Source: an uncultured Bacilli bacterium | GTDB lineage: Bacteria; Bacillota_I; Bacilli_A; RF39; UBA660 | Assembly (NCBI GenBank): GCA_947625085.1 | Contig: CANQMV010000001.1 | Coordinates: 3,722-67,721, forward strand | Length of the DNA: 64,000 bases | Reading direction: 5' to 3' | Part shown: positions 2,005 to 47,946 of the stretch, in pieces | Position numbering within the stretch: the first letter of the stretch is position 1 | Layout of the letters: every line of letters begins with the position of its first letter | The notes under the pieces: generated by a model | Told to the model about the DNA's origin: nothing | The model's input: the letters and a program-made list of their open reading frames with translations, nothing else | Databases searched by the model: none | Position numbers and translations under genes: made by a program

Positions 2005-3960
2005 ATGTTTGAATTAGTATCTAAATATAAACCAAGTGGTGACCAGCCAAATGCAATTGAAGAATTAACAAATGGAATAAAGAATGGTGTTAAACATCAA
2101 GTTTTACTTGGAGCAACTGGTACTGGAAAAACGTTTACGATTGCAAATGTTATTAAAAATGTTAATAAACAAACACTTGTTCTTGCTCATAATAAAACTT
2201 TAGCAGGACAACTTTATAGTGAACTTAAAGAGTTATTTCCAAATAACCGAGTAGAATATTTTGTCTCTTACTACGATTATTATCAACCAGAAGCCTATGT
2301 TCCATCAAGTGATACCTATATTGAAAAAGATGCCTCAATAAACGATGAAATTGATGAATTAAGACATTCAGCTACCAGTGCTTTACTATCAAGAGATGAT
2401 GTTATTGTTGTTGCTAGTGTTTCTTGTATTTATGGAATTGGTGAAGTTGAAGAATATCGAAATAAAACCTTAACATTAAAAGTTTCAGAAACCTGTGACC
2501 GTAATCAAGTAATGTTAAAACTTGTTGATATGTTGTATGAACGAAATGAATTAGATTTCAAAAGAGGAACCTTTAGAGTTAGAGGAGATACTTTAGAAAT
2601 TATTCCTTCAAATGAACATGTTCATGCACTTAGAATAGAATTTTTTGGCGATGAAATTGAGCGAATTAGTGAAATTGATGCTTTAACTGGAGCCATTATT
2701 ACTAATAAAAAAAGTGTTACAATATTTCCAGCTAGCCACTTTGTAACTAACGAAGAAACTTTAAAAATTGCAGTTGATAACATCAAAGAAGAATTAAAAG
2801 AAAGAATAGAATACTTTAATCAAAATAATAAACCTTTAGAGGCCGAAAGAATTAGAGAGCGGACAAACTATGATATGGAAATGTTACTTGAAACGGGTTT
2901 TTGTCATGGAATTGAAAATTATTCAAGACATTTAGCGTTAAAAAAGGCCGGTGAAACGCCAACCTGTTTACTTGATTTTTTTAATAAAGATTTTTTATTA
3001 GTAATTGATGAAAGTCATGTTACTGTTCCTCAAATAAGAGGAATGTATAATGGAGATAGAGCTCGAAAGTTAAATTTGGTTGATTACGGATTTAGACTTC
3101 CAAGTGCCCTTGATAATCGACCATTAAAATTTAATGAATTTGAAAACAAAGTTAATCAAGTAATTTATGTATCTGCAACTCCCGGCGACTATGAACTTGC
3201 GCTTACTAATAATAAATTTATAGAACAAATTATAAGACCAACTGGACTTTTAGACCCAACGATTGAAATTCGAAAAACCGTTGGCCAAATTGATAATTTA
3301 GTTGGGGAAATTAATGAAAGAATCAATCAAAATGAACGAGTATTAGTTACAACATTAACTATTCGAATGGCTGAAGAATTAACTAATTATTTAAAACAAT
3401 TAGATATAAAAGTTGCTTATTTACATTCAGAAATTAAAACTCTTGAAAGAATGAAAATTATTCGTGATTTACGACTTGGTACTTATGATGTTTTAGTTGG
3501 AATTAATCTTCTTCGAGAAGGACTTGATATCCCAGAAGTTAGTTTAATTGCTATTCTTGACGCTGATAAAGAGGGCTTTTTAAGAAGTGAGCGAAGTTTA
3601 ATTCAAACGATTGGTCGGTGTGCAAGAAATGCAAATGGACATGTTATTTTATATGCTGATAAAATGACTGATAGTATGGAATATGCAATTAAAGAAACTA
3701 AAAGACGTCGAGAAATTCAAATTAAATATAATGAACTTCACAATATTACTCCTAAAACAATTATCAAAGAAATTAGAGATTTAATTTCTAATATTGATGA
3801 GGAAAGCAAAACTAAAAAGACGACGAAAATGACTAAACAAGAAAAAATTAAGACTATGCAACTACTTGAAGATGAAATGCGAGAAGCTGCTCATAATCTT
3901 GATTTTGAAAGAGCAATGGAATTAAGAGATATTTTATTTGAAATGAAAGCGGAAGATTAA
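2005..3960 (+). CDS. uvrB: excinuclease ABC subunit B
   Basis: Walker [10 protein letters not shown], a helicase C-terminal region, and a C-terminal UvrB/UvrC interaction motif (FERAMELRD). RBS AAGGAGGT at 1993-2000 before ATG 2005. Confidence 0.95.
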
Positions 3961-4885: not shown

Positions 4886-5473
4886 ATGAAAATAGAAGTT
4901 AAATCATATTCAAATATAGCACTACTTATTAGTTCAATTGTCTTTTTTATCTTAGGAGCAGTAATGTTTACAAGACCTGATGCAATTGTTTTAGTTGTAT
5001 CTTATGTAATTGGGGGCTTAATTATTTTACTTGGAATATTTAATTGTATTAAAAATTATATTCAAGTAAAAAATGATAATAGAATTTCTTCTAAAGGAAT
5101 GGTTTTAGGAATAGTTTTAGTAGTAGTTGGTCTTGTTTTTATTTTTTTAGCAGGCGTAATTGAAGCCTTAGTTAGATTAGTAATTGGAGGTTGGATTTTA
5201 TTTAGTGGTATTAACCGATTAATAAATGCTTTATATCTTGATAAGAAAAGTGTTAATTTTTATGTTATGTTAGTTTTAGCTCTTTTACTTATTGGCGGAG
5301 GACTTTATACAATCTTAGAAACTAATTTAGTTTTTAAATATTTAGGAATAGTATTAATGGTTTACTCAACACTAGAAATAATTGGTTATATTTTTAATAA
5401 AAAAAATGATAATACCAAAACTTCTCCTAAAACAATAGAGGCTTCTATTGTAGAAGTAAAAAAAATTAAATAA
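4886..5473 (+). CDS. DUF308/HdeD-like multi-pass membrane protein
   Basis: Six hydrophobic helices with the paired-helix repeat pattern of the DUF308 family. RBS GAGAGAGG. Confidence 0.55.
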   Translation: MKIEVKSYSNIALLISSIVFFILGAVMFTRPDAIVLVVSYVIGGLIILLGIFNCIKNYIQVKNDNRISSKGMVLGIVLVVVGLVFIFLAGVIEALVRLVIGGWILFSGINRLINALYLDKKSVNFYVMLVLALLLIGGGLYTILETNLVFKYLGIVLMVYSTLEIIGYIFNKKNDNTKTSPKTIEASIVEVKKIK

Positions 5474-5559
5474 AACTAAAAGATAAAAATTACTTAAATT
5501 AATTATTAGTAGTAAAGTTACTAATAATTTTTTAAAATTTATAGTTATAGAGGTTTAGA

Positions 5560-5940
5560 ATGAATAATTTTAATTATTATATATTTAAATATTATTTAAA
5601 CTATTTTATTTTTATCTTGATACTTAAAAATATAAATTATCTTTTGGGAATTACTTTAAGTGATTTAGGTAGTATACCTATCGTTTTTATTCCTATTACT
5701 TATTTAACAATTAAATACTTAATTATTAATAAATTAAAAAAAACTAATTATACTAAGAAAGATATAATTTGGTATCTTTTAATTGGTTTTACAATTTTGA
5801 ATTTTCTTTTTAAAATGCCAATTATCTATGATATTTTGATAATTATTTTTCTTTTAGTACTAAAAGATAAAAAGCTGCAAGAGCAGACTATTATGGAAAA
5901 AAATATTAAAGAGTATTATAAGAATAAAAATAAAAAATAA
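5560..5940 (+). CDS. small hypothetical membrane protein
   Basis: 126 aa, three hydrophobic segments, RBS AGAGG. Confidence 0.45.
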   Translation: MNNFNYYIFKYYLNYFIFILILKNINYLLGITLSDLGSIPIVFIPITYLTIKYLIINKLKKTNYTKKDIIWYLLIGFTILNFLFKMPIIYDILIIIFLLVLKDKKLQEQTIMEKNIKEYYKNKNKK

Positions 5941-6039
5941 AATATGTAAATTATATCAAGAAAAATATATGAAAATTTCACCAAAAAAACATATTTTTTT
6001 ACTATTTTTGTGATATACTTAAAAGGTAGGAGAGAAAAG

Positions 6040-6969
6040 ATGAAAAAGGAGTTTAAGACCTTAAATGAGCAAGTTGAGATACTAAGAAATAAAGGATTAA
6101 TTATTAATGATGAAGAGTATGCTAAGACAGTTTTATTTAGAGAAAATTATTTCTTTTTAAATGGGTATCGTTACTTATTTATGCGTAGTAGTGTTGATAA
6201 AAGATATATAGAAGGATGTACTTTTGAAGAATTATATAGTTTATTTTTATTTGACCGAGAATTTAGAAATATTATTTTTAAAAATATTTTAATTATTGAA
6301 AATAATGTAAAATCGGTTATTAGTTACCAATTATCTCTTAAATATGGATATCGAGAAAAAGATTATTTAACCCCTAAAAATTTTACAACTAATAAAGAAA
6401 AAATTAAACAAGTTAATGATATCTTAAAAAAAATGAAAAGACAAATTAATATTAATGCTACTCAGCACTCGGCAACTATGCATTATGTTAATAATTATGG
6501 TTATATTCCCTTATGGGTTTTAGTTAAAGTTTTGTCTTTTGGAATTGTTGGAGAACTTTATTCTATTTTAAAAAAAGAAGACCAAATGGGAATAGCTGAA
6601 CTTTATAATGTCGATGTTGATGTATTAATAAATTATTTAACGATTTTATCTAATTATCGTAATTTATGTGCACATGAAGATATTGTTTATGAAAATAAAA
6701 CCCAAAGAAAGATTGCTGATAATAAATATCATAAGTTGCTTAATATTCCAATAATGGATGATGAATATATTTATGGAAAAGATGATTTATTTGCTTTAAT
6801 TATCATTATGAAACAAATGTTATCTAAAGAGGAATTTGCAAATTTGATAGAAGAAATTAGACATGTTTTAGCAAATTTAGAACTTAATTTACATACGATA
6901 AAAATAGATAAAGTATTAGATAGAATGGGATTTCCTAAAAATTATTATGAAATAAAAAATTTAGATTGA
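6040..6969 (+). CDS. Abi_2 (AbiD/AbiF-like) abortive-infection family protein
   Basis: Shares the N-terminal and central conserved blocks of the Abi_2 family (LNEQVEILRNKGLII, FFLNGYRYLF, LWVLVKVLSFG, YRNLCAHED). RBS AAAGGTAGGAGAG before ATG 6040. Confidence 0.75.
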   Translation: MKKEFKTLNEQVEILRNKGLIINDEEYAKTVLFRENYFFLNGYRYLFMRSSVDKRYIEGCTFEELYSLFLFDREFRNIIFKNILIIENNVKSVISYQLSLKYGYREKDYLTPKNFTTNKEKIKQVNDILKKMKRQININATQHSATMHYVNNYGYIPLWVLVKVLSFGIVGELYSILKKEDQMGIAELYNVDVDVLINYLTILSNYRNLCAHEDIVYENKTQRKIADNKYHKLLNIPIMDDEYIYGKDDLFALIIIMKQMLSKEEFANLIEEIRHVLANLELNLHTIKIDKVLDRMGFPKNYYEIKNLD

Positions 6970-7004
6970 TGGCATTTTAACATGGAAAGGAATGTGAGGT
7001 TTTA

Positions 7005-8135
7005 ATGAAAGATAAAAATAGAATTAATCAAGTAATTTATTTATTTGTTGCCTTTATTTTAGGTGGTTTATTAATGTATTATATTTCTCTTAATACTCCG
7101 GTTTTACAAAATATTACAAGTAATAGTTCAGGAAGTAGTAGTTCAAATAATACTTGTAGAGCTTGTAGTGGAACTGTGGTTGTTAATGATGGTTCGTTAT
7201 CAGCAAGTGTTGAAAAAATATATGATGCTGTTATGATGGTTCGAAATTATAAAGGAGAAACAATTCAATCTACTGGAAGTGGTTTCGTATATAAAACTGA
7301 TTCTAAATATGCCTATTTATTAACTAATCATCATGTTATAGATGGAGCTTCTAAAATAACTTTAATTAATAGTAAAGATGATGAAATTGAAGGTAAAGTT
7401 TTGGGAAGTGATATGTATTTAGACTTAGCAGTTGTAAGGCTTGATAAAGATAAAATAATAGATGTTGCTCCTATTGGAACTAGTGAAAATTCTAAACTTG
7501 GAGATACTGTATTTACGGTTGGTTCTCCTCTTGGTTATGAATATCGAGGAACTGTAACTGATGGAATTTTATCTGGAAAAGATAGATATGTAACAGTTAG
7601 CGTTTCTGGTAATAATGATTGGGTTATGAAAGTATTACAAACAAATGCTGCTGTAAATCCTGGTAATAGTGGTGGTCCTTTAGTAAATGCTCAAGGTGAA
7701 GTAATTGGCGTAATTTCTCTAAAATTAGTTGAAAATGAAGTTGAAAATATGGGATTTGCTATTCCTATTGAATATGCTATGAGTCATATTGATAGTTTAG
7801 AAAAAGGTGAAGCGATAGTTCGACCTATGCTTGGAATTACTATGGTAAATGTAACTGATACTTATACTTTATATCGAAGTGGTATCATGTTAGATAGTAG
7901 TATTACAGAAGGTGTGGTTGTTGTTGAAATTTCAAGTAATAGTGGAGCAAGCAATTCTGACTTAAAAAAAGGTGATGTAATTACAAAAGTCAATAACGAA
8001 AAGGTAAGTAACAGTGCTTATTTAAGATATGAATTATATAAATATAATGTTGGAGATACAATCACGATTACTTATTTAAGAGATGGTAAAGAAAAAACTA
8101 CTAAGATTACTTTAACTGAATATAAAGAAGATTAA
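7005..8135 (+). CDS. membrane-anchored S1C serine protease (HtrA/DegP family) with a C-terminal PDZ-like region
   Basis: N-terminal TM helix. Catalytic triad context TNHHVIDGA ... D ... GNSGGPL. Confidence 0.85.
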   Translation: MKDKNRINQVIYLFVAFILGGLLMYYISLNTPVLQNITSNSSGSSSSNNTCRACSGTVVVNDGSLSASVEKIYDAVMMVRNYKGETIQSTGSGFVYKTDSKYAYLLTNHHVIDGASKITLINSKDDEIEGKVLGSDMYLDLAVVRLDKDKIIDVAPIGTSENSKLGDTVFTVGSPLGYEYRGTVTDGILSGKDRYVTVSVSGNNDWVMKVLQTNAAVNPGNSGGPLVNAQGEVIGVISLKLVENEVENMGFAIPIEYAMSHIDSLEKGEAIVRPMLGITMVNVTDTYTLYRSGIMLDSSITEGVVVVEISSNSGASNSDLKKGDVITKVNNEKVSNSAYLRYELYKYNVGDTITITYLRDGKEKTTKITLTEYKED

Positions 8136-8182
8136 ATTAATGAAAATAAAAAGATAAGTTGAAAAAATAATCAATTTATCTT

Positions 8183-8821
8183 TTATTTTTCATTTGGAAT
8201 AAGTAAGATTTGTCCAACCATTATATCATCGGTTAATAAGTTATTTATTTTTTTAAGTTCAGCAAGTTCAATCTTATAATAATCAGCAATCTCTTTTAAA
8301 GTATCATTATCTTTAACAACATAAGGTCGATAGTTACTAGTTTCAGGAATAATTAAACTTTCGCCAATTTTTAACATATTATTATCTAAATTATTTACTT
8401 CTTTTAATTTCTCAACACTAATATTATAACGTTTGGCAATATTATATAAAGTATCACCTGGTTTTACAATATAAGTAATATCATTATTAGAAGTTTTAAC
8501 AGGAATTAATAATTGTTCACCAATTTTTAAAAGAGTTGTTCCTTGTTCATTAAAATTAACTAATTCTTCTAAAGAAAGTTCATATCTTTTAGCAATATTA
8601 TATAAACTATCTCCCGGTTTAATTGTATAAATTATATAATCACTTGGAGGAGATTGTTCTACTTTTTTATATGGTATTTTAAGTTCCTGACCGATTTTTA
8701 AAATATTGCTTTCTAAATTATTTAATATTTTTAAAATACCAACAGTTGTATTATATTTATCAGCAATATCATATAAGTTGTCTCCTTCTTTAACAATATA
8801 AATTTCTTCTTCCATGTTCAC
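8183..8821 (-). CDS. protein with four LysM repeats
   Basis: Four repeats of the YxVKxGDxLxxIAxxY...L..N motif. No signal peptide or catalytic domain is evident. Confidence 0.85.
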   Translation of the reverse strand: MNMEEEIYIVKEGDNLYDIADKYNTTVGILKILNNLESNILKIGQELKIPYKKVEQSPPSDYIIYTIKPGDSLYNIAKRYELSLEELVNFNEQGTTLLKIGEQLLIPVKTSNNDITYIVKPGDTLYNIAKRYNISVEKLKEVNNLDNNMLKIGESLIIPETSNYRPYVVKDNDTLKEIADYYKIELAELKKINNLLTDDIMVGQILLIPNEK

Positions 8822-8881
8822 CTCGTTTAATTATACGGGTAATAAACAAAAAGAATACTAAAAAATGAAAAGTATAAATAA

Positions 8882-9940
8882 TTATTTACACTTTTCATAT
8901 GGTAATTCATTGTTAAAAAACTTTTTAAAAGCAGAGATATAAGTAGTTGAATTTAATGGAATAAAATTTTTCGTTAAGAAATCTAATATTAGTTTTCTTT
9001 CTTCGAATGTTGTTTCAATTAACTCTCCGTTTACAGTAATTCCAAATCGATTATTTAATAAAGAGTCATATTGTAATTGTTGTTTAGGGAAAAATCTCAT
9101 TGAAAATAATGAAACTACATTTTTACTAAAGAATGTTCTATCCTCTTTATCAAAAATTTCATTGGCTTTTTTAATTAGTTCTTCAGGAGAATAAATAGTA
9201 TTTATATATAAATCAATACAATTAAAATTTTCTTTTTTCTCTTTAGCTATTTTAAAAATTTTATAAACATCATTAGTAATATTTTCTGCATTTTCTTTCA
9301 TTTCTTGACTCATTAAAAATTCTTGATACAAAGTAGGAAGATTTAGTCTCATATAATTAATTACACCATTGTATTTTAAATAATTCATACTTGTATTTTT
9401 AAATGTTAAAAATCTTTTGATAGAATATTTTGAATTAATACATTCTTCAATCAATTGTTTATATTTTTCTTTTTCTTTATCTGATAGTTTTGAAACTCTA
9501 TTAGAACTACTAACAGTTTTTTTCTTTTGAGTTATACTTGAATTTAATATATTGATAGTTAAATTATCATAAATTTTAGGATTTAAAATTATAATATCAG
9601 GTCTAAATTCGATAAAGTATTTATCAATATTTTCTTTTAAATAACTTAGAGGTAGATTTTGTCTATTTAAGTATTCATTTGCTTCTTCTTTAGATAATGT
9701 TAATAGTTTTTCGTATACTTTTCCATAATCAGGAATATCTTCTGATATTAGTATTTGTTCTTTTATATATTTTAATAAGCAAGCAACGTATTTTTGAACA
9801 GTTAGATTAAGTTTATGTGTTTCAATAACTCTTTCAACCCCTTGTTTACAAGGATTTTTAATATATAATTCATAAAGTGTTTTTAGAACTAAATCTGTTT
9901 TTTTAGCATTTGATGTAGGATTTGTTTTTTTATTTTCCAT
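8882..9940 (-). CDS. hypothetical protein; third cassette gene of the tRNA-Leu array
   Basis: 352-aa ORF with RBS AAAGGGGGA. Its own reverse-strand promoter is TTGATT at 9996-9991, a 17-nt spacer, and TATAAT at 9973-9968. Confidence 0.6.
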   Translation of the reverse strand: MENKKTNPTSNAKKTDLVLKTLYELYIKNPCKQGVERVIETHKLNLTVQKYVACLLKYIKEQILISEDIPDYGKVYEKLLTLSKEEANEYLNRQNLPLSYLKENIDKYFIEFRPDIIILNPKIYDNLTINILNSSITQKKKTVSSSNRVSKLSDKEKEKYKQLIEECINSKYSIKRFLTFKNTSMNYLKYNGVINYMRLNLPTLYQEFLMSQEMKENAENITNDVYKIFKIAKEKKENFNCIDLYINTIYSPEELIKKANEIFDKEDRTFFSKNVVSLFSMRFFPKQQLQYDSLLNNRFGITVNGELIETTFEERKLILDFLTKNFIPLNSTTYISAFKKFFNNELPYEKCK

Positions 9941-10296
9941 AATAGGTCCCCCTTTAAAAACGTTAGTATTATACTATAAAAAATTAAAAAAATCAAGAAA
10001 TATTTAACATATCGGTTTAATTACGTTTTAATTTTATGATTTTTTATTCGCATTTTTCGAATTTAGTATCTATCTGGTGCGAGTGACGTAGTTATCTACA
10101 ACTTTTTATAAACATAACTGATTTAAGTATCAATAAAAAAAATTACTTATTAGTTTTTTTTAAACATTTATATAATAAAAAAAGCAAGTTAGACGCATCC
10201 GACTTGCTCAGATGGAATCCGAATAATTAATCCCCTAGGTATTTTGACAAACATATCAAAATAACCTAAGGGATTATCCTTTTATATCAATATTCG

Positions 10297-10340
10297 AAAA
10301 AGTTTGAATAGATTCGTCAATGGTGTCCTAAAGGAAGAAG
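10297..10340. repeat. R_C: diverged third copy of the tRNA-Leu flank/att-like junction (ggtgtCCTAAAGGAAGAAG)
   Basis: AAAAGTTTGAATAGATTCGTCAATGGTGTCCTAAAGGAAGAAG aligns with R_B at 11608-11649. Confidence 0.5.
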
Positions 10341-10491
10341 TTCGACAAATTTTAATTTATCAAAAAAAACGATGGGTACCCCGGGCGAGATGAATTCTCA
10401 CATACTAAGTATGCTTACTGGCTATGCCAACACATCGTTATTCCCTCACAAGTATCCCATCTACAAATATATTATAACACAAAATTGTTTA

Positions 10492-11430
10492 TTATTCATA
10501 TTTTTTTTGATTTTTAAATTCTTCAATGTAAACTTGACTAATATATTCAATTGCTATATCACTATATTTATAAATTTTGCTTTTTGAATATTCAAATAAA
10601 TAACAATAATCTTGATTACTTTTTATGTTTTTTCTTTTACAAATATCTTGAAATTTATTTGGAGTAAATCCATGATTAGGTCCAAGAGATAGTTCCAAAG
10701 TTTCTTTTATTTTTTTTACTACATCAGTTGTAGTGTATGGATGCGTTTTTTCAATATCCTTTGGAACATTAATAACGGTTGCTAAATCTTTACTATCTTT
10801 TACAATTGTATATTTAATGTCCGCTTCAGATTCTTTTTTTGTAGAAATTAGTCTTAATGTTTGACCCAAAGATTCATCAGAATTTAACTCTTTTTTTAAT
10901 TTATCAAGTAATAATAAATTTGCTGGATTTAATATTAATGATGACACATCTTCATTATTGCCTGGATTCACTAGAGCAATATAAGGAGTTACTTTTTCAT
11001 TTAGATTATAATTAGGAAATTGTTTTTTAAAAAATTTATTATAATTTGTAAGACATCTTTGAAATGCAGGAGATAAAATATAATCATATTCAGGTAAAAT
11101 AAGGTGCGTAGCTTTGTTTCTTATATTTCTAATAAATGAAATATTATTTTTAGTTTTGTCTGTTGTGCTTGTAAAAATCTTTTCTACACATTCATCAAGT
11201 CCAATTGTTCTATTGGAATCATCCTTATAATTAATAACAGTAATGTCTTTTGCTTTATTAATAAGATATGCCTTTAATAACAATTCCCATGCATTACAGA
11301 TAAAAAAGCAAAAACCTTCTGTTCGATAATTTATAGTTGGTTTGTTAATAATTTCAATAGACATTAAGTACGCTTCTTCGGATTTATTCAATAGTGCATA
11401 AATATAATTACTTAACTCCTTCTCTGACAT
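10492..11430 (-). CDS. HEPN-like protein (Rx4H motif RNKATH); candidate RNase or abortive-infection effector
   Basis: R-x4-H in the block NIRNKATHLILPE. N-terminal helical block EGFCFFICNAWELLLKAYL. The start is taken at the third ATG, which follows RBS AAAAGGAG. Confidence 0.5.
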   Translation of the reverse strand: MSEKELSNYIYALLNKSEEAYLMSIEIINKPTINYRTEGFCFFICNAWELLLKAYLINKAKDITVINYKDDSNRTIGLDECVEKIFTSTTDKTKNNISFIRNIRNKATHLILPEYDYILSPAFQRCLTNYNKFFKKQFPNYNLNEKVTPYIALVNPGNNEDVSSLILNPANLLLLDKLKKELNSDESLGQTLRLISTKKESEADIKYTIVKDSKDLATVINVPKDIEKTHPYTTTDVVKKIKETLELSLGPNHGFTPNKFQDICKRKNIKSNQDYCYLFEYSKSKIYKYSDIAIEYISQVYIEEFKNQKKYE

Positions 11431-11522
11431 TAATACCATCTCCTTTTAATTTATTATTATATTATATAAATTTTAAAAATAATAAAATTATTTTCACATG
11501 TATATTGAGTTGCAATATACAA

Positions 11523-11649
11523 GTGCGTTTTCTAAATTGACAAATCTATCAATTAAATTTAAAAATATTATATCATAGATTCAAACATATTAAAACTCGA
11601 ACTATAAAAGTCCGAGTTTAATATCAATTTGGTGCCCTAAAGGAAGGAG
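11523..11649. repeat. R_B: roughly 80% identical copy of the tRNA-Leu downstream flank, including the last 6 nt of the tRNA (TGGTGC), followed by new sequence
   Basis: Aligns base by base with 12733-12858 and diverges exactly after TGGTGC. Contains a conserved extended -10 on the reverse strand (TATAAT 11572-11567). Confidence 0.7.
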
Positions 11650-11791
11650 TATGACAACTGTTTTATTTTAAATAGTCATCTAAATATTTTTTCCATTCTG
11701 GGGTATTTTCTTCATCAAATAAATGACATAAAAAATCTACAACTATTTGATGCCTATCTTTTGATTCAGTTATCCAAAACGCGTTAGCCTT

Positions 11792-12667
11792 TTAATTACA
11801 TTTTTTTATATACACACTCATTTTAGCATTTTCTAACATATCTTCAGTAATATTTCCAAGATATAAATATGGATTTTCATTATATTCCGGTTTATATAAT
11901 TTTCCTATACAGCTTAAAAAATCTTGAGAAAAACCAATACTTTTTAAGTATTCCAAATAATGACTAAGTTTATAAAATGGTAATTTACTAAAATTACTTT
12001 GAGTCAAATAATTCATAACTATCATCATATAACAAAGAAGATCGGTATTCCTAGAAGCTAAATATTCACCATCAGGTCCTATATTATATTTATTTTCAGA
12101 ACCAAAATAAAGCAAATTATTACCACATAATTTTAAATATTTAGAGTTAATTCCTTTTTCAAATAAACTTACACCATTTGAATCAATTATTTTTATTTCA
12201 TCGTCCATAGTTATAATAATATTATCTTCATGAAAATCACCAAAATGAAAATGATAAGGAAAAATTTGCAGATCTTTTATTCTTTCTAGAATGAATCCTA
12301 TCCTTTGTAAGACTTCAATTTTTTGTTTGAAATTTACGTTTGGGTTTGTTAAATAACTTTTTAAATTTAATCCTTCTATATATTTACTTAAGTATCCTAC
12401 TAAATATTGATCAATATATACTAATGACTCTGGTAATACTAATTCAGGTACAATCTCTGCAAATATACTTTTATATTCCATTAAAATTTGAATAGTTTTT
12501 AATCCTTGTGAAGAATAATAATTATATATATTCTTCATAATTTTCATTAACAATCTTTCTTTGCCTAATTCATAAAAATAAAATATTCCTTCACTTGTAG
12601 CAGAATTATCCGGTTTGAATCTTTCAAATGTAGATAATTGTTCTTTTTTTAAGAAGATACTATTCAT
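11792..12667 (-). CDS. protein kinase-like / aminoglycoside-phosphotransferase-like fold protein
   Basis: HFGDFHEDNIII resembles the HxDxxxxN catalytic loop. IIDSNG resembles the DFG-like metal-binding motif. RBS AAAGGAG. Confidence 0.5.
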   Translation of the reverse strand: MNSIFLKKEQLSTFERFKPDNSATSEGIFYFYELGKERLLMKIMKNIYNYYSSQGLKTIQILMEYKSIFAEIVPELVLPESLVYIDQYLVGYLSKYIEGLNLKSYLTNPNVNFKQKIEVLQRIGFILERIKDLQIFPYHFHFGDFHEDNIIITMDDEIKIIDSNGVSLFEKGINSKYLKLCGNNLLYFGSENKYNIGPDGEYLASRNTDLLCYMMIVMNYLTQSNFSKLPFYKLSHYLEYLKSIGFSQDFLSCIGKLYKPEYNENPYLYLGNITEDMLENAKMSVYIKKCN

Positions 12668-12732
12668 ATATTTCTCCTTTCTGATATTTATAATGAGTAT
12701 GTTATCATATTTGCCAATTGAAAAATTGGCAA

Positions 12733-12852
12733 GTGTGTTTTCTAAATTGACAAATAATCAATTTAGATTTGTGAAGTATTATAACATAAAATTAAACATT
12801 AAAAAACACGAACTATTTAAATAAATTAAAAAGTCCGAGTTTAATGTCAATC
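12733..12852. repeat. R_A: native flank of tRNA-Leu carrying the cassette promoter template
   Basis: Reverse-strand extended -10 TGTTATAAT at 12786-12778. Perfect palindrome TTGCCAATT-n4-AATTGGCAA at 12711-12732 lies just downstream of it. Confidence 0.65.
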
Positions 12853-12936
12853 TGGTGCTTGTGGAGGGAATCGAACCCTCACATCATAGATACACGATTT
12901 TGAGTCGTGCGCGTCTACCAATTCCGCCACACAAGC
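12853..12936 (-). tRNA. tRNA-Leu (anticodon CAA), type II with long variable arm, CCA encoded
   Basis: Reverse complement is GCTTGTGTGGCGGAATTGGTAGACGCGCACGACTCAAAATCGTG...GAGGGTTCGATTCCCTCCACAAGCACCA. It has a 7-bp acceptor stem, anticodon loop CTCAAAA, and T-loop TTCGATT. Confidence 0.9.
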
Positions 12937-13079
12937 AATACATATAGATTATAGCATAAAAAATTAAAAATAGAGCTTTTTTAAACTATTTTTTTCTAAA
13001 AATTATAAAATTCCAAAAAATGGTAAAAATTTTAATAATTAATTTTTAATATGATATACTTTAATTGGGTGGGTGCTAT

Positions 13080-13619
13080 ATGCAGAATTTCATTATTAAT
13101 TTAATGAATGAATTTGGTTATTTAGGAATATTTTCGTTTATTACCTTCGAAAACATATTTCCTCTTCCAAGAGAAGCAATTTTAACTTTTAGTTTTTATA
13201 TGGCAACATATTCATATCTTAAAATTTTTATAATTATTATTATAGCAACTTTTGGTAGTTTAACTGGGGCTATTATTTTATATTATGCAGGTAAAATATT
13301 TAATGAAGAACGACTTTTAATATTTACTAAAAGTAAATATAGAAAAATTTTGAAATTAAAAGAAAAAGATATCAAAAACTGTAAAGAATGGTTTTTACAA
13401 AGAGGAGAAAAATGCATTTTCTTTGGAAGATTTATTCCCTTTATTAGAAGTTTAATTTGGAATAGTATATTAATATTACTTGGTTTTTATATTGGCAAAA
13501 ATTGGCTCATTATAATAAAGATTTTAAAAACCTATACTATTGCAATATTAAGCATAATTTTAATTATTACAATAATATATTTTATAAGCGAAAACAACAG
13601 CAATAAACTGTTGTTTTAA
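13080..13619 (+). CDS. DedA/VTT-domain family membrane protein
   Basis: FENIFPLPREAIL block typical of DedA. Multiple TM segments. The ATG at 13080 is preferred over the upstream TTG. Confidence 0.75.
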   Translation: MQNFIINLMNEFGYLGIFSFITFENIFPLPREAILTFSFYMATYSYLKIFIIIIIATFGSLTGAIILYYAGKIFNEERLLIFTKSKYRKILKLKEKDIKNCKEWFLQRGEKCIFFGRFIPFIRSLIWNSILILLGFYIGKNWLIIIKILKTYTIAILSIILIITIIYFISENNSNKLLF

Positions 13620-13891
13620 TTATCTGATAATTTGGACATTAACTTAAGTTCTACTTCAAGACTTTGTTGATACTTTGAAAGTAAATCAAGTAATTCCTTT
13701 CGTTTTTTTGTATAAGTTTCTAATTTCTTTTTTTGAAACCAAAAAGGCTTCATTTTATCTAGATTTTCAATTTGTAATTTACATAACTTTATTTCTAAAA
13801 ATAATATCTCTAATAAATTAAAGGAATCATCAAGTTGACAATTTAAAGATAAATTTAAAATTTTTTTATTTAATTCTTCTACTTCTTCCAT
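13616..13891 (-). CDS. small hypothetical coiled-coil protein
   Basis: 91 aa, RBS GAGGTAGAAC. Confidence 0.45.
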   Translation of the reverse strand: MEEVEELNKKILNLSLNCQLDDSFNLLEILFLEIKLCKLQIENLDKMKPFWFQKKKLETYTKKRKELLDLLSKYQQSLEVELKLMSKLSDN

Positions 13892-14013
13892 GTTCTACCT
13901 CATCTGTTTGTTAAAAGTTATTATAACACAAAGTTAAAAAAATAATAACTGAAAATAGCATATAACTTTATAAACCACCTAAAATGTGAAAATTAAAGTG
14001 GTGGTAAATATAT

Positions 14014-14469
14014 ATGATTAATTTCGAAAAATTAAAAAATATCAGAGAAGATAATGATTTAGAACAAAAAGATATGGCAAGAATTTTAAAAGTTAAAAGA
14101 AGTACCTATTCTTTATGGGAGTTGGGAATAAATATAATCCCGCTTAATTATTTAATAGATTTTGCTGATTACTTTGATTATAATATAGATTATGTATTAG
14201 GATTATTAAAAGATAAGAAAAATAATAGGGTTGAAAAAGGAATTAATTTAATTATACTTGGTAATAATTTAAAAAAATTACGTTTAGAAAATAAATTATC
14301 TCAAGAAGATATGGGAAATATTCTGGGAGTATCGCAAGCTTGTATTGCTAAATATGAAAAAGGTAAAATATTAATTTCAACTTCAAATTTATATAAAATT
14401 TCTAAAAAGTTTAAAATTCCTATGAATGAATTATGTAATATGGATAAAAAGTTAATACCAAATAATTAA
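14014..14469 (+). CDS. XRE-family transcriptional regulator with two HTH_3 domains
   Basis: Two copies of the L...R......Q..(M/L)A.......(S/T)....E.G pattern. RBS GGTGGT. Confidence 0.8.
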   Translation: MINFEKLKNIREDNDLEQKDMARILKVKRSTYSLWELGINIIPLNYLIDFADYFDYNIDYVLGLLKDKKNNRVEKGINLIILGNNLKKLRLENKLSQEDMGNILGVSQACIAKYEKGKILISTSNLYKISKKFKIPMNELCNMDKKLIPNN

Positions 14470-15101
14470 TAACTCATTAAAGTTATACGTCTGCCATTGG
14501 TTCTAATAAAACCATCCTCTTTTAAATTTTTGATTTCTCGCATCATTGCACTTCGGTCAACTGATAAATAATCAGCAAGTTCTGTATAAGAAAAGGGGAG
14601 TAAAAAAATTCGATTAGGTTTATCATTAGCTAATAACTCAAAATAAGAGAGCAATTTATCCCGGATACTTCTTTTAGATAGAATTTCAAGTCTCTGATTT
14701 AATTCCACAATTTTAGAAGATAAAATTCTAAGTACATTATTAGTTAAAGTACAATGATAACTGCAACCTTTTTTACATCTTTTAACAAGATGTTCATAAT
14801 CAATAAATAAAATTTCACAATCACTTGTTGCAACTACCGAAATATCATTTCCAAGTCTTGAAAAAACTTCACCAAAAACTGAGTTTTCTTCAAGTTTTTC
14901 TATGATTGAACGATTTCCATTATAATCATATCTAATCATATTAGCTGTTCCTTTTAGCATAATTCCGATTGTTTTAACATTAATAATATTAGTAACAATT
15001 GTTCTATCCTTTTTAAATTGCATACGTCTTGCTTCAAAACACTTTAACATTTTAGTAATATCCTCATCGTTAATTCCTTCAAAAATAGATTTTACTTGCA
15101 T
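14466..15101 (-). CDS. Crp/Fnr-family transcriptional regulator
   Basis: N-terminal cNMP-binding beta-roll region and a C-terminal HTH (SYTELADYLSVDRSAMMREIKNL). Divergent from nrdDG. Confidence 0.85.
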   Translation of the reverse strand: MQVKSIFEGINDEDITKMLKCFEARRMQFKKDRTIVTNIINVKTIGIMLKGTANMIRYDYNGNRSIIEKLEENSVFGEVFSRLGNDISVVATSDCEILFIDYEHLVKRCKKGCSYHCTLTNNVLRILSSKIVELNQRLEILSKRSIRDKLLSYFELLANDKPNRIFLLPFSYTELADYLSVDRSAMMREIKNLKEDGFIRTNGRRITLMSY

Positions 15102-15166
15102 TTGACATACCTCTTTTCTTTATATTTTAAGACATTTAATCATTAATTTGATTATATTATAAAAAA

Positions 15167-15180
15167 GTTGCAATTGCAAC
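15167..15180. promoter_or_regulatory. perfect palindrome GTTGC-AATT-GCAAC (5-4-5, FNR/CRP format) centred about 42 bp upstream of the inferred nrdD transcription start
   Basis: TATAAT at 15204-15209. The palindrome centre at 15173/15174 gives class II activator spacing. Lies between the Crp/Fnr regulator gene and nrdD. Confidence 0.4.
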
Positions 15181-15232
15181 ATAAAAGGGATTTTTAATTT
15201 GTTATAATTTTGTATAGGAAAGGTAGTTAAAA

Positions 15233-17365
15233 ATGAAAATAGTAAAAAGAAATGGAAAAACTGTTGATTATGACCCAGAAAAAATAAGAATTGCTATTAA
15301 AAAGGCTAATAATGATGTTTCAGATGATGATATAGTAACGGATACGGAAATTAATAAAATTATTAAATATATTGAAAATTCTAATAAAAATAAAAAACGC
15401 TTATTAGTTGAAGATATTCAAGATATAATTGAAAAAAAATTGGTAGAATTAAATAAATATGAACTTGCTAAAGCTTATATGTTATATCGTTATGAAAGAG
15501 AACTAATTCGAAAAGCCAATACCACTGATGAATCAATTTTAACTTTAATAAAAAATAGTAATAAAGAAGTAATGGAAGAAAATTCTAATAAAAATGCTTT
15601 TGTTGCAGCCACGCAAAGAGATTTAATTGCCGGCGAAGTTTCTAAAGATTTAACTAAAAGAATCCTTTTACCTGAAAAGATTAGCCAAGCGCATGAGGAT
15701 GGTATTTTACATTTTCATGATGCCGATTATTTTTTACAGCCAATTTTTAATTGTTGTTTAATTAATATAGAAGATATGCTTGATAATGGAACGGTCATGA
15801 ATGGAAAATTAATTGAAAGCCCTAAAAGTTTTCAAGTTGCCTGTACAGTTTTAACTCAAATAATTGCTGCTGTTGCTTCAAGTCAATATGGTGGACAATC
15901 TGTTAATATTAAGCATTTAGGAAAATATTTAAAGAAAAGTGAAGATAAATTTCGAGCCAAATTAACAGCTAAATTCAAAGGAAAATTTACTAAAGGTGAA
16001 ATTGAAGAATTAGTTAAAGACCGCCTACAAGAAGAACTTTCAGCAGGAATTCAAACTATAAGTTATCAAATTAATACTTTAATGACTACTAATGGTCAAG
16101 CCCCTTTTGTTACAATTTTTATGTATTTAGATGAAACTGACCCTTATATAGAATATACAGCTAAAATTATTGAAGAATTACTTAATCAAAGATATCAAGG
16201 TATTAAAAATGAAAAAGGAGTATATATAACCCCGGCATTTCCTAAATTAATATATGTTTTAGATGAAAATAACTCTCTTCAAGGTGGAAAATATGATTAT
16301 TTAACGCATTTGGCTGTTAAATGTTCAAGTAAAAGATTATATCCTGATTATATAAGTGCTAAAAAAATGCGTGAAAATTATGAAGGTAATGTTTTTAGTC
16401 CAATGGGTTGTCGAAGTTTTTTGTCTCCTTATAAAGATGAATTTGGAAAATATAAATTTGAAGGTAGATTTAATCAAGGGGTTGTAAGTATTAATTTACC
16501 ACAAATTGCAATTATTGCTTCTCAAGACGAAGATAAATTTTTTAAACTTTTAGACGAGAGACTTGATTTATGTTATGAAGCTTTAATGTGTAGACACCAT
16601 GCTTTACTTGGAACATTATCAAATGTTTCTCCAGTACACTTTCAATATGGAGCAATTGCAAGACTTAAAAAAAATGAACCAATCGATAAATTATTGAAAA
16701 ATGGTTATTCAACTATTTCGTTAGGTTATATTGGAATTTATGAAATGACTAAACTAATGACAGGGGTTTCTCATACAGAGCCAGTTGGTAAAGAATTTGC
16801 AATGAAAGTAATGAAAATTATGAGAAATAAATGTGAAGAATGGAAAAAAGAAACTGGAATTGGATTTGGATTATATGGAACTCCAGCAGAATCGTTGTGT
16901 TATCGATTTGCAAGAATTGATAAAGAAAAATTTGGAGTTATTAAAGATGTAACTGATAAAGGTTATTATACTAATTCATATCATGTTGATGTAAGAGAAG
17001 AAATTGACGCTTTTTCTAAACTTAAATTTGAAAGTGATTTTCAAAAAATATCATCAGGTGGAGCTATTTCTTATGTAGAAATTCCTAATATGCAAAATAA
17101 TTTGGAAGCTTTAGAAGATTTAGTAAAATTTATTTATAATAATATTCAATATGCAGAATTTAATACGAAAAGTGATTATTGTCATGTTTGTTCCTTTGAT
17201 GGAGAAATAATTATTAATGATAATTTAGAATGGGAGTGTCCAAATTGTCATAATAAAGATAAAGATAAGATGAATGTTACTAGAAGAACCTGCGGTTACT
17301 TAGGGGAAAATTTTTGGAATGTTGGAAAGACTAAAGAAATTAAAGCCCGAGTTTTACATTTATAG
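15233..17365 (+). CDS. nrdD: anaerobic ribonucleoside-triphosphate reductase (class III)
   Basis: N-terminal ATP-cone (VKRNGKTVDYDPEKI). C-terminal Zn Cys cluster and glycine-radical motif RTCGYLG. Confidence 0.95.
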   Translation: MKIVKRNGKTVDYDPEKIRIAIKKANNDVSDDDIVTDTEINKIIKYIENSNKNKKRLLVEDIQDIIEKKLVELNKYELAKAYMLYRYERELIRKANTTDESILTLIKNSNKEVMEENSNKNAFVAATQRDLIAGEVSKDLTKRILLPEKISQAHEDGILHFHDADYFLQPIFNCCLINIEDMLDNGTVMNGKLIESPKSFQVACTVLTQIIAAVASSQYGGQSVNIKHLGKYLKKSEDKFRAKLTAKFKGKFTKGEIEELVKDRLQEELSAGIQTISYQINTLMTTNGQAPFVTIFMYLDETDPYIEYTAKIIEELLNQRYQGIKNEKGVYITPAFPKLIYVLDENNSLQGGKYDYLTHLAVKCSSKRLYPDYISAKKMRENYEGNVFSPMGCRSFLSPYKDEFGKYKFEGRFNQGVVSINLPQIAIIASQDEDKFFKLLDERLDLCYEALMCRHHALLGTLSNVSPVHFQYGAIARLKKNEPIDKLLKNGYSTISLGYIGIYEMTKLMTGVSHTEPVGKEFAMKVMKIMRNKCEEWKKETGIGFGLYGTPAESLCYRFARIDKEKFGVIKDVTDKGYYTNSYHVDVREEIDAFSKLKFESDFQKISSGGAISYVEIPNMQNNLEALEDLVKFIYNNIQYAEFNTKSDYCHVCSFDGEIIINDNLEWECPNCHNKDKDKMNVTRRTCGYLGENFWNVGKTKEIKARVLHL

Positions 17366-17372
17366 ATGAATT

Positions 17373-17897
17373 ATGAAATATGCTAAAATTAAAAAATATG
17401 ATGTTAGCAATGGAGTAGGAGTTAGAGTTAGTCTTTTTGTATCTGGTTGTACTCATCATTGTAAAGGTTGTTTTAATGCCGAAGCCTGGGATTTTAATTA
17501 TGGCACAGATTTTACTGAAGCAACAATTAAAGAAATAATTGCTACTTTAAAACCAGATTATATAAGAGGCCTATCAATTCTTGGTGGTGAACCATTTGAA
17601 CTTATTAATCAAGAAGGCTTGCTTCCGCTTTTAAAAAAAGTTCGGGAAGTTTATCAAGATAAAAAAGATATTTGGGCTTATTCAGGTTATTTATATGAAG
17701 AATTAAAAGAAATGAAGAACAAAGAAATAAAAGAAGTTTTAGAATTAATTGATGTTTTAGTTGATGGTAAATTTATTGAAGATTTAAAAGACCCTCTTTT
17801 ATATTTTAGAGGTTCTAGCAATCAAAGAATAATTGATATGAATAAAACTAGGAAAAGTAAAAAAGTGATTTTACACGAAAAAAATACGAGGAGATAA
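17373..17897 (+). CDS. nrdG: anaerobic ribonucleotide reductase activating protein (radical SAM)
   Basis: CTHHCKGCFN cluster. Immediately downstream of nrdD. Confidence 0.9.
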   Translation: MKYAKIKKYDVSNGVGVRVSLFVSGCTHHCKGCFNAEAWDFNYGTDFTEATIKEIIATLKPDYIRGLSILGGEPFELINQEGLLPLLKKVREVYQDKKDIWAYSGYLYEELKEMKNKEIKEVLELIDVLVDGKFIEDLKDPLLYFRGSSNQRIIDMNKTRKSKKVILHEKNTRR

Positions 17898-17902
17898 AAA
17901 TA

Positions 17903-18346
17903 ATGAAAACAAAAATTTTAGAAATTAAAAAATTAGATGAAGAGGCAGTTATTCCAAGCTATGGAACAGAATTTTCAGCTGGGGCTGACCTTTATGCTTT
18001 ATTAAAAGATGAATTAACTATTAATCCAGGAGAAATGTATATGGTTCCAACGGGACTTGCTATGGCAATTCCAGAAGGATATGTTGGACTTATTTATGCT
18101 AGAAGTTCTTTGGCAACCAAAAAAGGTCTTGCTCCTGCTAATAAGGTTGGAGTTATTGATGCTGATTATCGAGGGGAGATTAAAGTGGCTCTTTTCAATC
18201 ATTCTAAAGAACCTCAAACGATTCTTCCTAAAGAAAGAATTGCGCAGATAGTTTTTACCCCTTATTTAAAAGTAGATTTTAAGGAACAAAAAGAGTTGAA
18301 TGAAACGGTAAGAGGAGCAGGTGGATTTGGCTCAACTAATAAATAA
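17903..18346 (+). CDS. dut: dUTP diphosphatase
   Basis: Conserved dUTPase motifs (AGADL, GLIDADYRGE, RGAGGFGSTN). RBS GAGGAG. Confidence 0.9.
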   Translation: MKTKILEIKKLDEEAVIPSYGTEFSAGADLYALLKDELTINPGEMYMVPTGLAMAIPEGYVGLIYARSSLATKKGLAPANKVGVIDADYRGEIKVALFNHSKEPQTILPKERIAQIVFTPYLKVDFKEQKELNETVRGAGGFGSTNK

Positions 18347-45638: not shown

Positions 45639-45713
45639 GTCCTCATAGTATAAAGGATAGTACGGATTCCTCCTAAGAATTAAATGTAGGTTCGATTCCT
45701 ACTGGGGACGCCA
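45639..45713 (+). tRNA. tRNA-Arg (anticodon CCU)
   Basis: GTCCTCATAGTATAAAGGATAGTACGGATTCCTCCTAAGAATTAAATGTAGGTTCGATTCCTACTGGGGACGCCA. Anticodon loop CTCCTAA. Confidence 0.9.
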
Positions 45714-45965
45714 TATTGTATATAAAGAGCTGAAAATCAGTTCTTTTTTTATTAAAAATATTAGTTTAAATTAAAAAGGTGAAATTTGTTCACCTTTAAA
45801 CCTTTCTAAAACCTCGTTTTATAAGCTTTTTAAAAAAAACTTCTTTTTCTTAAAAAATAAAAAAAAGAGTATAGATTATTATTAGAGGTTAAGAATAACC
45901 TCATATTTCATGAAAAGGAGGTTTGATATCATGATATTAGAAGAAAAATGGAAAGGAGGATTTAG

Positions 45966-47036: not shown

Positions 47037-47196
47037 TTTAATAAAAATTTAAATTTTAAAGGTTATGAAATAAAACTCATTACCTTTTTTAATTTAATGT
47101 AACTTTAAATAAAAGCTTATTAAAGAAAACAACTTTTTAAGGAAATTTCTTGATAATAAAATGAAATTTTGCTATTATTTCTTTGGAGGCAAAGTT

Positions 47197-47942: not shown

Positions 47943-47946
47943 ATTA

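Follow-up and report, generated by a model that had tools for sequence, protein, structure and literature searches.

The stretch of DNA analysed here, referred to as the window, comprises 64,000 nucleotides of contig CANQMV010000001.1 from an uncultured Bacilli bacterium; it has a G+C content of ~23% and encodes sporulation proteins and an anaerobic ribonucleotide reductase. The nearest NrdD among 185,579 species genomes searched, a set from which the species of the window is absent, is 90% identical and belongs to L002, a metagenome-assembled genome of an uncultured 'Bacilli' from rabbit gut that is treated below as the sister species; two contigs from other samples, L001 and L097, also carry part of the locus. 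The subject of this account is an array of short units downstream of a tRNA-Leu(CAA) gene, all of whose features lie on the minus strand (Table 1). It holds four junctions, between which are found two gene cassettes and one unit without an open reading frame (ORF), and a gene for a protein of 352 amino acids (aa) follows the last junction; the units measure 1.2–1.3 kb and carry one gene or none. The successive modules or junctions moving away from the tRNA are denoted RA, RB, RC and RD. An initial annotation of the window had correctly recognised the three minus-strand ORFs behind the tRNA, which it took for the cargos of three cassettes, each directly preceded by a copy of the tRNA flank; in fact only two are gene cassettes, the third unit is empty, RD had been missed, and RC is not next to the 352-aa gene but separated from it by the ORF-less unit of ~215 nt and RD. 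The locus is best read as a compact gene-swapping hotspot and not as a set of ordinary neighbouring genes, since copies of a phage-type attachment (att) site separate its units and since these recur behind four other tRNA genes in relatives.

Table 1. Features of the array at tRNA-Leu(CAA) and related positions (window coordinates unless a contig is named)
Feature	Position	Strand	Basis
tRNA-Leu(CAA), CCA encoded	12853-12936	-	ARAGORN; Rfam tRNA model 61.7 bits
Proximal array junction, final tRNA bases GCACCA	12853-12858	-	ARAGORN and sequence
RA, left-end module of cassette 1	12668-12852	-	alignment with RB, z = 22
Cassette 1 cargo, 291-aa kinase-like protein	11792-12667	-	homologue alignment; profile against PDB
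Cassette 1 non-coding tail, 43 codons	11663-11791	-	sequence reading and homologues
Junction 2, motif J (AACAGTTGTCATACTCCTTCCTTTAGG) plus GCACCA, right end of cassette 1	11630-11662	-	J profile, E = 1.3e-15
RB, left-end module of cassette 2	11440-11629	-	alignment with RA; hairpin z = -5.7
Cassette 2 cargo, PDC-S19-type protein	10492-11430 (ORF list: 10492-11439)	-	Pfam, PADLOC
Cassette 2 structured RNA-like element	10362-10481	-	conservation, fold, compensatory changes
Junction 3, motif J' (AAAATTTGTCGAACTTCTTCCTTTAGG) plus ACACCA, right end of cassette 2	10321-10353	-	J profile, E = 5.7e-12
ORF-less unit, degenerate module RC	10108-10320	-	sequence reading
Junction 4 (RD), J2-type motif AAAAAGTTGTAGATAACTAC..GCACCA (10075-10107), then GATAGATAC and hairpin	10046-10107	-	repeat-family search
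352-aa all-alpha protein gene	8882-9940	-	synteny with L002; AlphaFold2 (AF2) model
Copies of the RNA-like element	L098 1126-1250; L099 8970-9094; L102 8981-9105; L109 7979-8103; L103 ~7975-8090; L117 ~6975-7065		
Segments compared for the inversion	window 12824-17997 with L002 5039-12463; window 5003-9022 with L002 20840-13767		

On the minus strand, GATTGAC comes behind the GCACCA of the tRNA; next are a long hairpin, an extended -10 box and a leader containing two small inverted repeats, and then the 291-aa ORF. The general layout of a junction is motif J, CACCA, GATTGAT and hairpin. RA thus comprises GATTGAC, a hairpin (12797-12846; -9.6 kcal/mol, z = -4.2), the -10 box TGTTATAAT (in 12771-12786), the block TTTAGAAAACACACTTG together with an inverted repeat (12730-12764) and a further hairpin (12711-12732), and RB comprises AATTGAT, a hairpin flagged as terminator-like (11587-11624), the -10 box TGATATAAT (in 11561-11575), the leader block at 11520-11554 and, at 11500-11520, a further hairpin. 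The alignment of the two modules extends over ~130 columns and scores 108, dinucleotide shuffles giving 24 ± 3.7, and on direct reading of their hairpins C/T in the 5' arm is paired by G/A in the 3' arm. The 17-mer CTTCCTTTAGGRCACCA has exactly two copies in the 64 kb (0.08 expected) and the 25-mer CACCARATTGAYATTAAACTCGGAC likewise two (0 expected). As the initial annotation had observed, the last nucleotides of the tRNA are duplicated as TGGTGC (11630-11635) and TGGTGT (10321-10326), both followed on the plus strand by the shared sequence CCTAAAGGAAG. Its proposal of progressively diverged copies of the tRNA flank applies to RB and not to RC, whose significant similarity is to RB, in the 33-nt motif J ending in CACCA (z = 6.8), and which is not recognisable as a copy of RA (z = -0.1). 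Moreover, the ~120-bp repeat that it regarded as the native flank of the tRNA is better seen as the conserved left end of each element, with hairpin, promoter and leader, since homologous sequence follows tRNA-Arg(TCT), tRNA-Glu(TTC) and tRNA-Met(CAT) elsewhere and a divergent variant follows tRNA-Thr(GGT).

The more distal junctions are less regular. RC has a long, near-perfect hairpin (10221-10279), centred on the TTGAT..TTTGTCAA motif as in RA and RB, and a terminator (10177-10207). ORF-less units also occur in the contigs L098, L102 and L115, with AAAACGTACTT..AAGTGCGTTTTTAT and GTCAAGGAAACTTGCATAAAATAAAAA common to them, and may be decayed cassettes or small-RNA cassettes. At RD the hairpin (ATTCG/CGAAT, 10046-10062) is weak (z = -1.8), the 17-mer AAGTTGTAGATAACTAC agrees with its counterpart in L002 at 16 of 17 bases, and the promoter part resembles RA (z = 6.2), a likeness that may only reflect a promoter consensus, since RD also resembles the tRNA's own promoter; RD is probably the distal end of the inserted array. 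The promoter of the 352-aa gene (9968-9990) and that of tRNA-Leu (12948-12970) have 21 of 23 nt in common (91%; TTTTTAATTTTTTAT..TATAAT), probably as a strong house promoter consensus, which cautions against taking every likeness between AT-rich promoters of this genome for homology. A promoter consensus scan stayed at background level (42 found against 37 expected) and was uninformative at 23% G+C.

Across the window and its relatives, the hairpin starts ~11 nt past the CCA at 15 of 17 junctions, its strength is highest at the tRNA-proximal ones (z = -3 to -7), and the stem variants ACTCG/CGAGT, ATTCG/CGAAT and ACTTG/CAAGT all retain pairing. It probably terminates transcription of the tRNA or of the upstream cassette; that it is conserved from one cassette to the next would also suit a role in recombination. 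A GA (or AA) dinucleotide stands right after the CCA at most junctions. Profiles derived from the junctions recovered all sites of the array and its relatives and nothing further in the window. Motif J was considered as a partial tRNA and rejected as a detectable one, as it drew neither an Rfam match (E<=1) nor an ARAGORN call; with the local tRNA-Leu it has only GCACCA in common, and the classical tRNA-targeting crossover, in which the distal repeat would be a copy of the 3' part of the local tRNA, was rejected likewise, GCACCA alone being matched.

The cargo of the second cassette has an N-terminal DUF3644 (PF12358, 1.3e-42), which is a HEPN domain (PMC3710099), and a C-terminal restriction-endonuclease-like domain, EC042_2821 (PF18740, 2.3e-11), both above cut-offs. 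It matches the PADLOC profile PDLC04952 at E = 9.4e-68 over residues 11-303, i.e., over its full length, and is a candidate single-gene defence system of the type PDC-S19. A different DUF3644 protein, HEC-08, provides defence that depends on its Rx4-6H histidine (bioRxiv 10.1101/2024.01.29.577857). The PDC-S19 protein has 403 homologues, many of them 79-100% identical, in differing genomic contexts, and near-identical proteins (95-99%) occur in different gene neighbourhoods. An RNA-like element with its own extended -10 box (TGTGTTATAAT, 10471-10481), a ~90-nt three-way-junction fold and a T-run at its end lies 3' of every PDC-S19 gene examined, including copies of 78-82% DNA identity and those in non-tRNA contexts. 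Compensatory changes are seen at 4 of the 32 predicted pairs (6 sequences), and Rfam yields no match at E<=1; the T-run is present in most copies, that of L117 having retained the closing stem and lost the T-run. The element could be a regulatory or antitoxin-like partner of the PDC-S19 gene.

The cargo of the first cassette is rarer, with only 6 homologues among 5.8 billion proteins. The motif GDxHExN...IKIxDxNG is invariant in the 7 aligned sequences, and a profile made from the family finds protein kinases in the PDB (E = 1.6e-4); the protein matches PADLOC PD-T4-6 weakly (E = 1e-5), no Pfam family reaches its cut-off, and the AF2 model (pLDDT 55) is too poor for a structure search. The designation kinase-like, given already in the initial annotation along with HEPN-like for the middle gene, can thus be kept on the strength of weak matches, just as the latter is borne out by DUF3644. 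The tail behind this ORF is in frame with its stop codon and open until motif J. It was considered as part of an ancestral 334-aa kinase gene with a premature stop, which was rejected: both the 91% and the 57% homologue stop at this same residue (the ends of P0001 and P0002 coincide with that of the 291-aa ORF), and the tail of longer homologues is unrelated. The tail may be the 3' remnant of an earlier cargo replaced within the same cassette frame. In L115, where the 57% homologue lies behind tRNA-Met(CAT) with the leader block TTTAGAAAACACACTTG, J comes directly after the stop codon of the kinase-like gene and ends in GGGTACCA, followed immediately by AATTGAT. In L097 (at ~232, corresponding to 11844-11904 of the window) the kinase-like gene has a ~61-nt deletion and is called as a 270-aa protein, which may be a pseudogenised allele or, since contig coverage is ~2x, an assembly artefact.

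Cargos that are unrelated to one another have these conserved ends in common. Upstream of three genes stands the left module with TTTAGAAAACACACTTG: the kinase-like gene in the window and L115, the PDC-S19 gene in the window, L098 and L099, and, in L099, a gene for a 240-aa membrane protein. Motif J stands at the 3' side of all three. Conversely, the same cassette is found behind different tRNAs. The window sequence from 11641 to 10321 is 95-97% identical to the DNA that follows tRNA-Arg(TCT) in L099 and L100; in L099 this segment (7782-9108, 95.7%) starts in the last bases of the tRNA, ends at J-GCACCA and is followed by a further module and the 240-aa membrane-protein cassette with its own J. 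The high-identity DNA common to the window, L098 and L099 stops exactly at 10321. Behind tRNA-Glu(TTC) in L102 lie the PDC-S19 gene and its RNA at 92.7% identity (window 11501 to 10348), and behind tRNA-Thr(GGT) in L109 an 82% version of the PDC-S19 gene, flanked by an 80-nt direct repeat that starts GCACCA/GCATCA. A 78% version follows tRNA-Met(CAT) in L117; the sequence downstream of this tRNA is identical in L121 but preceded there by a J-like ...GTACCA in place of the tRNA, which places the left boundary exactly after ACCA. In the lineage L103-L108, the gene is fixed between NUDIX and RNase HII genes with no tRNA near. The cargo of the related arrays, scanned with PADLOC and Pfam, consists nearly entirely of orphans.

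The content of the locus itself also varies between close relatives. L097, from a third sample, confirms the order tRNA, RA, cassette 1. L001 is identical to the window at 1174 of 1174 nt, covering cassette 1 with part of RA before it and, behind it, J and the initial 34 nt of the next junction, and then switches within the junction hairpin to unrelated DNA; neither this tail nor the RC-RD interval of the window matches any of the loci. In L002 the tRNA-Leu and the core are followed by a different gene of 254 aa on the opposite strand, a J2-type junction with a second copy of the core and a PP2C-like gene. The content differences in L001 and L002 mean that the three genes are not universally conserved in the clade, universal conservation being what the initial annotation had named as fatal to a hotspot; its reading of repeated site-specific insertion or cassette exchange gains from these differences, from the recurrence of the same cassette and ends behind other tRNAs and from the phage homology described below. 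A scan of JGI metagenomes for the core gave 8 matches, attributable to chance except possibly one (L088, 7335-7400, minus strand), an intergenic ...CTCACCAAAGACATTACATTGATATTAAACTCGGACTTTCTGAGT... with a 20-nt exact core match in the contig Ga0074193_1000001 (833 kb, 26% G+C). This site has a hairpin and a downstream terminator and no tRNA within 10 kb, and may be a distant relative of the junctions or a coincidence.

The 352-aa gene, in contrast to its earlier interpretation as a third cassette, is probably a native downstream neighbour of the tRNA and not cargo, since in L002 its family is located beside the orthologous LysM gene, as three paralogues in tandem (30-33% identity) downstream of the dUTPase gene and with no tRNA beside them. 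On this synteny, a third cassette of like kind was rejected. The family is rare, with 48 relatives among 1.84 billion representatives, and the all-alpha AF2 model (pLDDT 85) has no fold match in the PDB at E<0.8 by Foldseek. In L002 the block from tRNA-Leu to the dUTPase gene is inverted relative to the block with the 352-aa family, LysM, HtrA and Abi_2.

The junctions look like attP sites of serine-recombinase phages. A gapped junction pattern retrieved from IMG/VR the AT-rich temperate-phage contigs L124/L127, L125 and L126 (G+C 0.25-0.30, low like that of the window), in all of which the holin and endolysin genes are closely followed by the site. In L127, the endolysin gene is followed by the site (~3300-3390), an 89-aa ORF and, 0.7 kb from the site, a Resolvase-domain gene at 4001 (PF00239 in the first 130 residues, E = 6e-28). 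L128 encodes a recombinase 90% identical to that of L127 and has a weaker J-like site ~0.5 kb upstream of the gene (J profile E = 0.066), its alignment with L099b being not significant (z = 0.9). The site of L126 aligns with the DNA downstream of tRNA-Met in L115 over ~80 nt from ACCA/GATTGAT onward (z = 18.9), and that of L127 with junction 2, i.e., the RB junction of the window (z = 6.6), and with L099b (z = 8.3); in L125, the J-like part is similar to the 3' end of tRNA-Met. The usual place of attP in temperate phages is the interval from the lysis genes to the integrase gene. In terms of such sites, the tRNA-proximal junctions are like B-P' hybrids and the internal ones like a whole attP, the distal ones retaining the 5' arm of the hairpin; the dyad symmetry around CCA/GA expected of serine-integrase att sites is not obvious by eye. 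Three other IMG/VR scans, which preceded that with the gapped pattern and used the exact RA/RB core, the J 17-mer and the hairpin arms, returned only chance matches, and blastn of the RB module against phage and plasmid collections returned nothing relevant.

Taken together, these observations are best accommodated by small integrative cassettes that lack a recombinase and have accreted in tandem at the 3' CCA end of tRNA-Leu(CAA), with a recombinase acting in trans, a reading to which a rough probability of 0.6 may be assigned. A cassette would consist of a left end (GATTGAT, hairpin/terminator, promoter and structured leader), one cargo gene and a right end (J..CACCA), and abutting cassettes would rebuild J-CACCA/GATTGAT-hairpin, the architecture of the phage site. 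A circular cassette with an attP-like junction would be inserted by the recombinase supplied in trans, most likely a large serine recombinase of a phage or transposon cutting at or beside CCA/GA, either just past the CCA of the tRNA or past the pseudo-CCA of a resident cassette. Since newer cassettes would insert right after the CCA, older ones would be pushed away from the tRNA; cassettes would be lost or swapped at these same junctions; and since each brings its own promoter, their cargos would be expressed independently. The outcome would be a small, exchangeable hotspot of accessory genes, probably for defence. The chemistry of excision and integration, the acting enzyme and the continued mobility of the cassettes are what we infer here. 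The finding is more general than the window alone and would represent a form of tRNA-anchored tandem accretion by non-autonomous elements.

Several points weigh against this reading. The comparison loci are metagenomic contigs throughout, some of them short or of low coverage, and assembly may break or mis-join at repeats. In agreement with the initial annotation, which had noted no integrase, no recombinase gene is found in the locus, among the further ORFs scanned in the window or in the bacterial arrays examined (the cassette ORFs contain no Pfam recombinase domain, and neither the window nor the bacterial arrays give a tblastn match to the phage serine recombinase), and this weakens the claim of present mobility. 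The likeness of J to tRNA 3' ends is only suggestive, as 19 of 300 shuffles reach the observed score (p~0.06). The IMG/VR pattern matches (n = 4) are about as many as expected by chance, so that the extended alignments and the location of the site are what the phage link depends on; and a serine-recombinase gene is adjacent in only two related phage contigs, L127 and, similarly, L128, both genes being cut by the contig end. The crossover point is not fixed, since context breakpoints fall exactly after ACCA in some cases (tRNA-proximal ends; L117 against L121) and inside the hairpin loop in three others (RB against L001, L099b against L099c, L099b against L098a), where they lie at the boundary of loop and 3' arm, e.g., between ...TTTTATAG and TTCGAG. 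Finally, canonical large serine integrases recombine attP with attB only, and internal junctions that resemble an intact attP are not readily explained by so strict an enzyme; the arrays could alternatively have been inherited as blocks or built by a less strict one. For serine recombinases an identity of 2 bp is sufficient, and some of them, that of Tn4451 for instance, are of low target specificity and work without a directionality factor (PMC5704250), which would fit the many tRNAs used and the GA or AA after the CCA.

These internal junctions, not makeable one by one by a strict attP x attB enzyme, also lend some weight to the proposal that the array represents one or more decayed prophage ends, in which phage integration delivered cassettes and junction repeats together and the phage body was later deleted, the units having no movement of their own. 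The junction architecture is found exactly in the lysin-to-integrase interval of the phage contigs, the region from the lysis genes to attP and int commonly carries accessory 'morons' in temperate phages, and phages vary here, a different gene following the site in L125 than in L127 and L126. Yet no remnants of phage genes are recognised in the window array, L099, L102 or L115, and a protein-based scan of 2.9 million viral contigs finds no relative of PDC-S19. One cassette (92-97% identity) stands behind three anchors with differing neighbours, namely cassette 1 in the window, tRNA-Arg in L099 and tRNA-Glu in L102, and unit-wise movement therefore fits better than inheritance as a block; such a prophage origin is thus rather unlikely.

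Homologous recombination or gene conversion after DNA uptake, for which the shared regulatory modules would supply the homology and the tRNAs would be no more than conserved anchors, is a shade less probable still. It would account for modules of ~130 nt that are similar throughout without a sharp identity boundary and contain plausible promoters and terminators, and for context breakpoints at various positions of the hairpin. It could not, however, set the same module directly after the CCA of several tRNA genes of different sequence, with a left boundary that is base-precise after ACCA in independent contexts; nor does it explain a J conserved at every right end with no evident regulatory role, or a junction homologous to a site beside a phage recombinase gene.

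The hairpin might instead be read as folded single-stranded DNA, like attC or the ends of IS200/IS605, on which a structure-specific integron-like or HUH-type enzyme encoded elsewhere would act. Single-gene cassettes mostly in one orientation, imperfect hairpins with compensatory changes, the three breakpoints at the boundary of loop and 3' arm and the lack of a long target duplication would all suit such a mechanism. It is nonetheless quite improbable: no intI or HUH transposase gene is adjacent, the stems misfit the integron R''/R' consensus (GTTRRRY), each cassette has its own promoter, an intrinsic terminator would also account for the hairpin, and the only recombinase seen beside a homologous site belongs to the serine recombinases, whose substrate is double-stranded DNA. 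Fortuitous matches within AT-rich intergenic DNA between three ordinary neighbouring genes, a pitfall already raised by the initial annotation and suggested by the G+C of ~23%, the background-level promoter scan and the non-significant comparison of RA with RC, are practically eliminated by the shuffle controls (z = 22 for RA and RB, 6.8 for J), by the oligomer counts (2 against 0-0.08 expected) and by the same motifs bounding the same cassettes in independent contigs.

The accretion of trans-mobilised cassettes can be set beside several known systems. Cis-mobilizable elements (CIMEs) are decayed elements that retain att sites and accrete in tandem at tRNA 3' ends (PMC5704250). Like these and related accretions (the ICESt1-related islands and the tRNA-Lys islands of S. 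agalactiae), the array keeps att-type ends without integration or transfer genes (PMC5704250) and is stacked head to tail at a tRNA 3' end with att repeats between the units, newcomers being expected at the att site. Its ends (J-CACCA plus GATTGAT-hairpin) are related to those of an autonomous element, as seen in the three phage-site alignments above, and the former possession and loss of integration and transfer genes is assumed. It differs from CIMEs in its units of only 1.2-1.3 kb, with conserved ends around unrelated cargos as in a cassette family, in its use of at least four or five tRNA isoacceptors, in abutting the CCA without duplicating a stretch of the local tRNA, and in that the related autonomous element is a serine-recombinase phage and not an integrative and conjugative or mobilizable element (ICE/IME) with a tyrosine integrase; the 64-kb window holds no adjacent ICE, IME or prophage. 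The tycheposons of Prochlorococcus are likewise cargo elements at a few tRNA genes, with tandem integrations split by partial tRNA copies and remnants that build islands, but they encode their own tyrosine (in some cases large serine) recombinase and usually replication genes and multi-gene cargo (bioRxiv 10.1101/2020.12.28.424599), whereas the array has no recombinase, single-gene cargo and a separator that is only weakly tRNA-like.

Integron arrays resemble the locus in their mostly co-oriented single-gene cassettes, imperfect hairpin sites and content that varies between close relatives. In contrast to them, the array is anchored at a tRNA and has a promoter-like region in each cassette; it has no adjacent intI, attI or Pc, and its hairpin arms (AAACTCGGAC and GTTCGAGTTT) depart from the attC pattern RYYYAAC...GTTRRRY, GTTCGAG misfitting GTTRRRY in a check by eye. 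The pdif modules of Acinetobacter plasmids are small modules of one to a few genes that lack a recombinase gene, are bounded by inverted XerC/XerD sites and occur in many contexts; no dif-like site is recognised in the array, and its anchor is a chromosomal tRNA gene. With elements that use large serine recombinases (phage integrases, Tn4451/Tn4453 and TnpX), it has in common a junction that occurs beside a serine-recombinase gene, a base-precise boundary and the lack of a long target duplication. With enzymes of the TnpX type, the crossover takes place at a GA dinucleotide and the insertion sites are similar to the joint of the circular form. In contrast, the cassettes encode no recombinase, and their internal attP-like junctions are unlike the strict product of attP x attB. 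Serine recombinases are not known to favour tRNA 3' ends as targets and mostly insert within genes (PMC5704250).

That these elements form a distinct class—non-autonomous, self-promoted, single-gene cassettes whose abutting ends rebuild a phage attP and which parasitise the serine recombinases of phages or transposons, inserting base-precisely after the CCA of many tRNAs and after each other—is a tentative and still doubtful possibility. If true, low-GC gut Firmicutes would possess an integron-like, tRNA-anchored platform for the exchange of defence and accessory genes with no dedicated integrase. More generally, if the cassettes are still mobile, single accessory or defence genes would be exchanged at tRNA ends by means of ~200 bp of shared ends and without a recombinase gene, which would explain the near-identical copies of PDC-S19 at different sites across uncultured gut Firmicutes and would give phage integrases a part in building the defence hotspots of the host itself. 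This att site is short, base-precise and apparently tolerant of many tRNA targets, and together with its recombinase could serve as an integration tool. The structured RNA that always accompanies the PDC-S19 gene offers a concrete lead on the regulation of an uncharacterised HEPN/nuclease candidate defence protein.

Some observations concern the surroundings of the array and other tRNA genes. One breakpoint of the inversion relative to L002 lies at the 3' side of the tRNA, i.e., at the position of the array. On the 5' side of tRNA-Leu, a DedA/VTT gene (13080-13619, plus strand) in the window has as its counterpart in L002 a gene for a 376-aa APH-family phosphotransferase (5245-6375), so that this flank, with the tRNA-Leu-to-dUTPase block inverted, is not as fixed as the initial annotation had expected; the genes beyond this position (a 91-aa ORF and a double-HTH XRE gene) are common to both. 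An Abi_2/AbiD gene (6010-6969, plus strand; Pfam 2e-41, PADLOC AbiD 4e-61) lies 2 kb beyond the array and appears to be resident and outside it, since L002 has an orthologous stretch. Elsewhere in the window, tRNA-Arg(CCT) is followed by genes for a PDDEXK_2 (Rpn-like) PD-(D/E)XK 'transposase', a 248-aa orphan and a HerA-type ATPase (45639-49704), and tRNA-Arg(CCG) by a DUF3800 gene on the opposite strand (52418-53516), both sites being without J or core motifs. A DUF3800 gene also lies behind tRNA-Lys(CTT) in L102, where it is adjoined by a DUF3800-I RNA (RF02969, 47.5 bits, above the gathering score); a second, weaker copy lies near an IS-type (insertion-sequence) DDE transposase gene, the positions concerned being 5025-5150 and 7334-7476, both on the minus strand. 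This represents a further accessory gene with a non-coding RNA parked behind a tRNA in these genomes.

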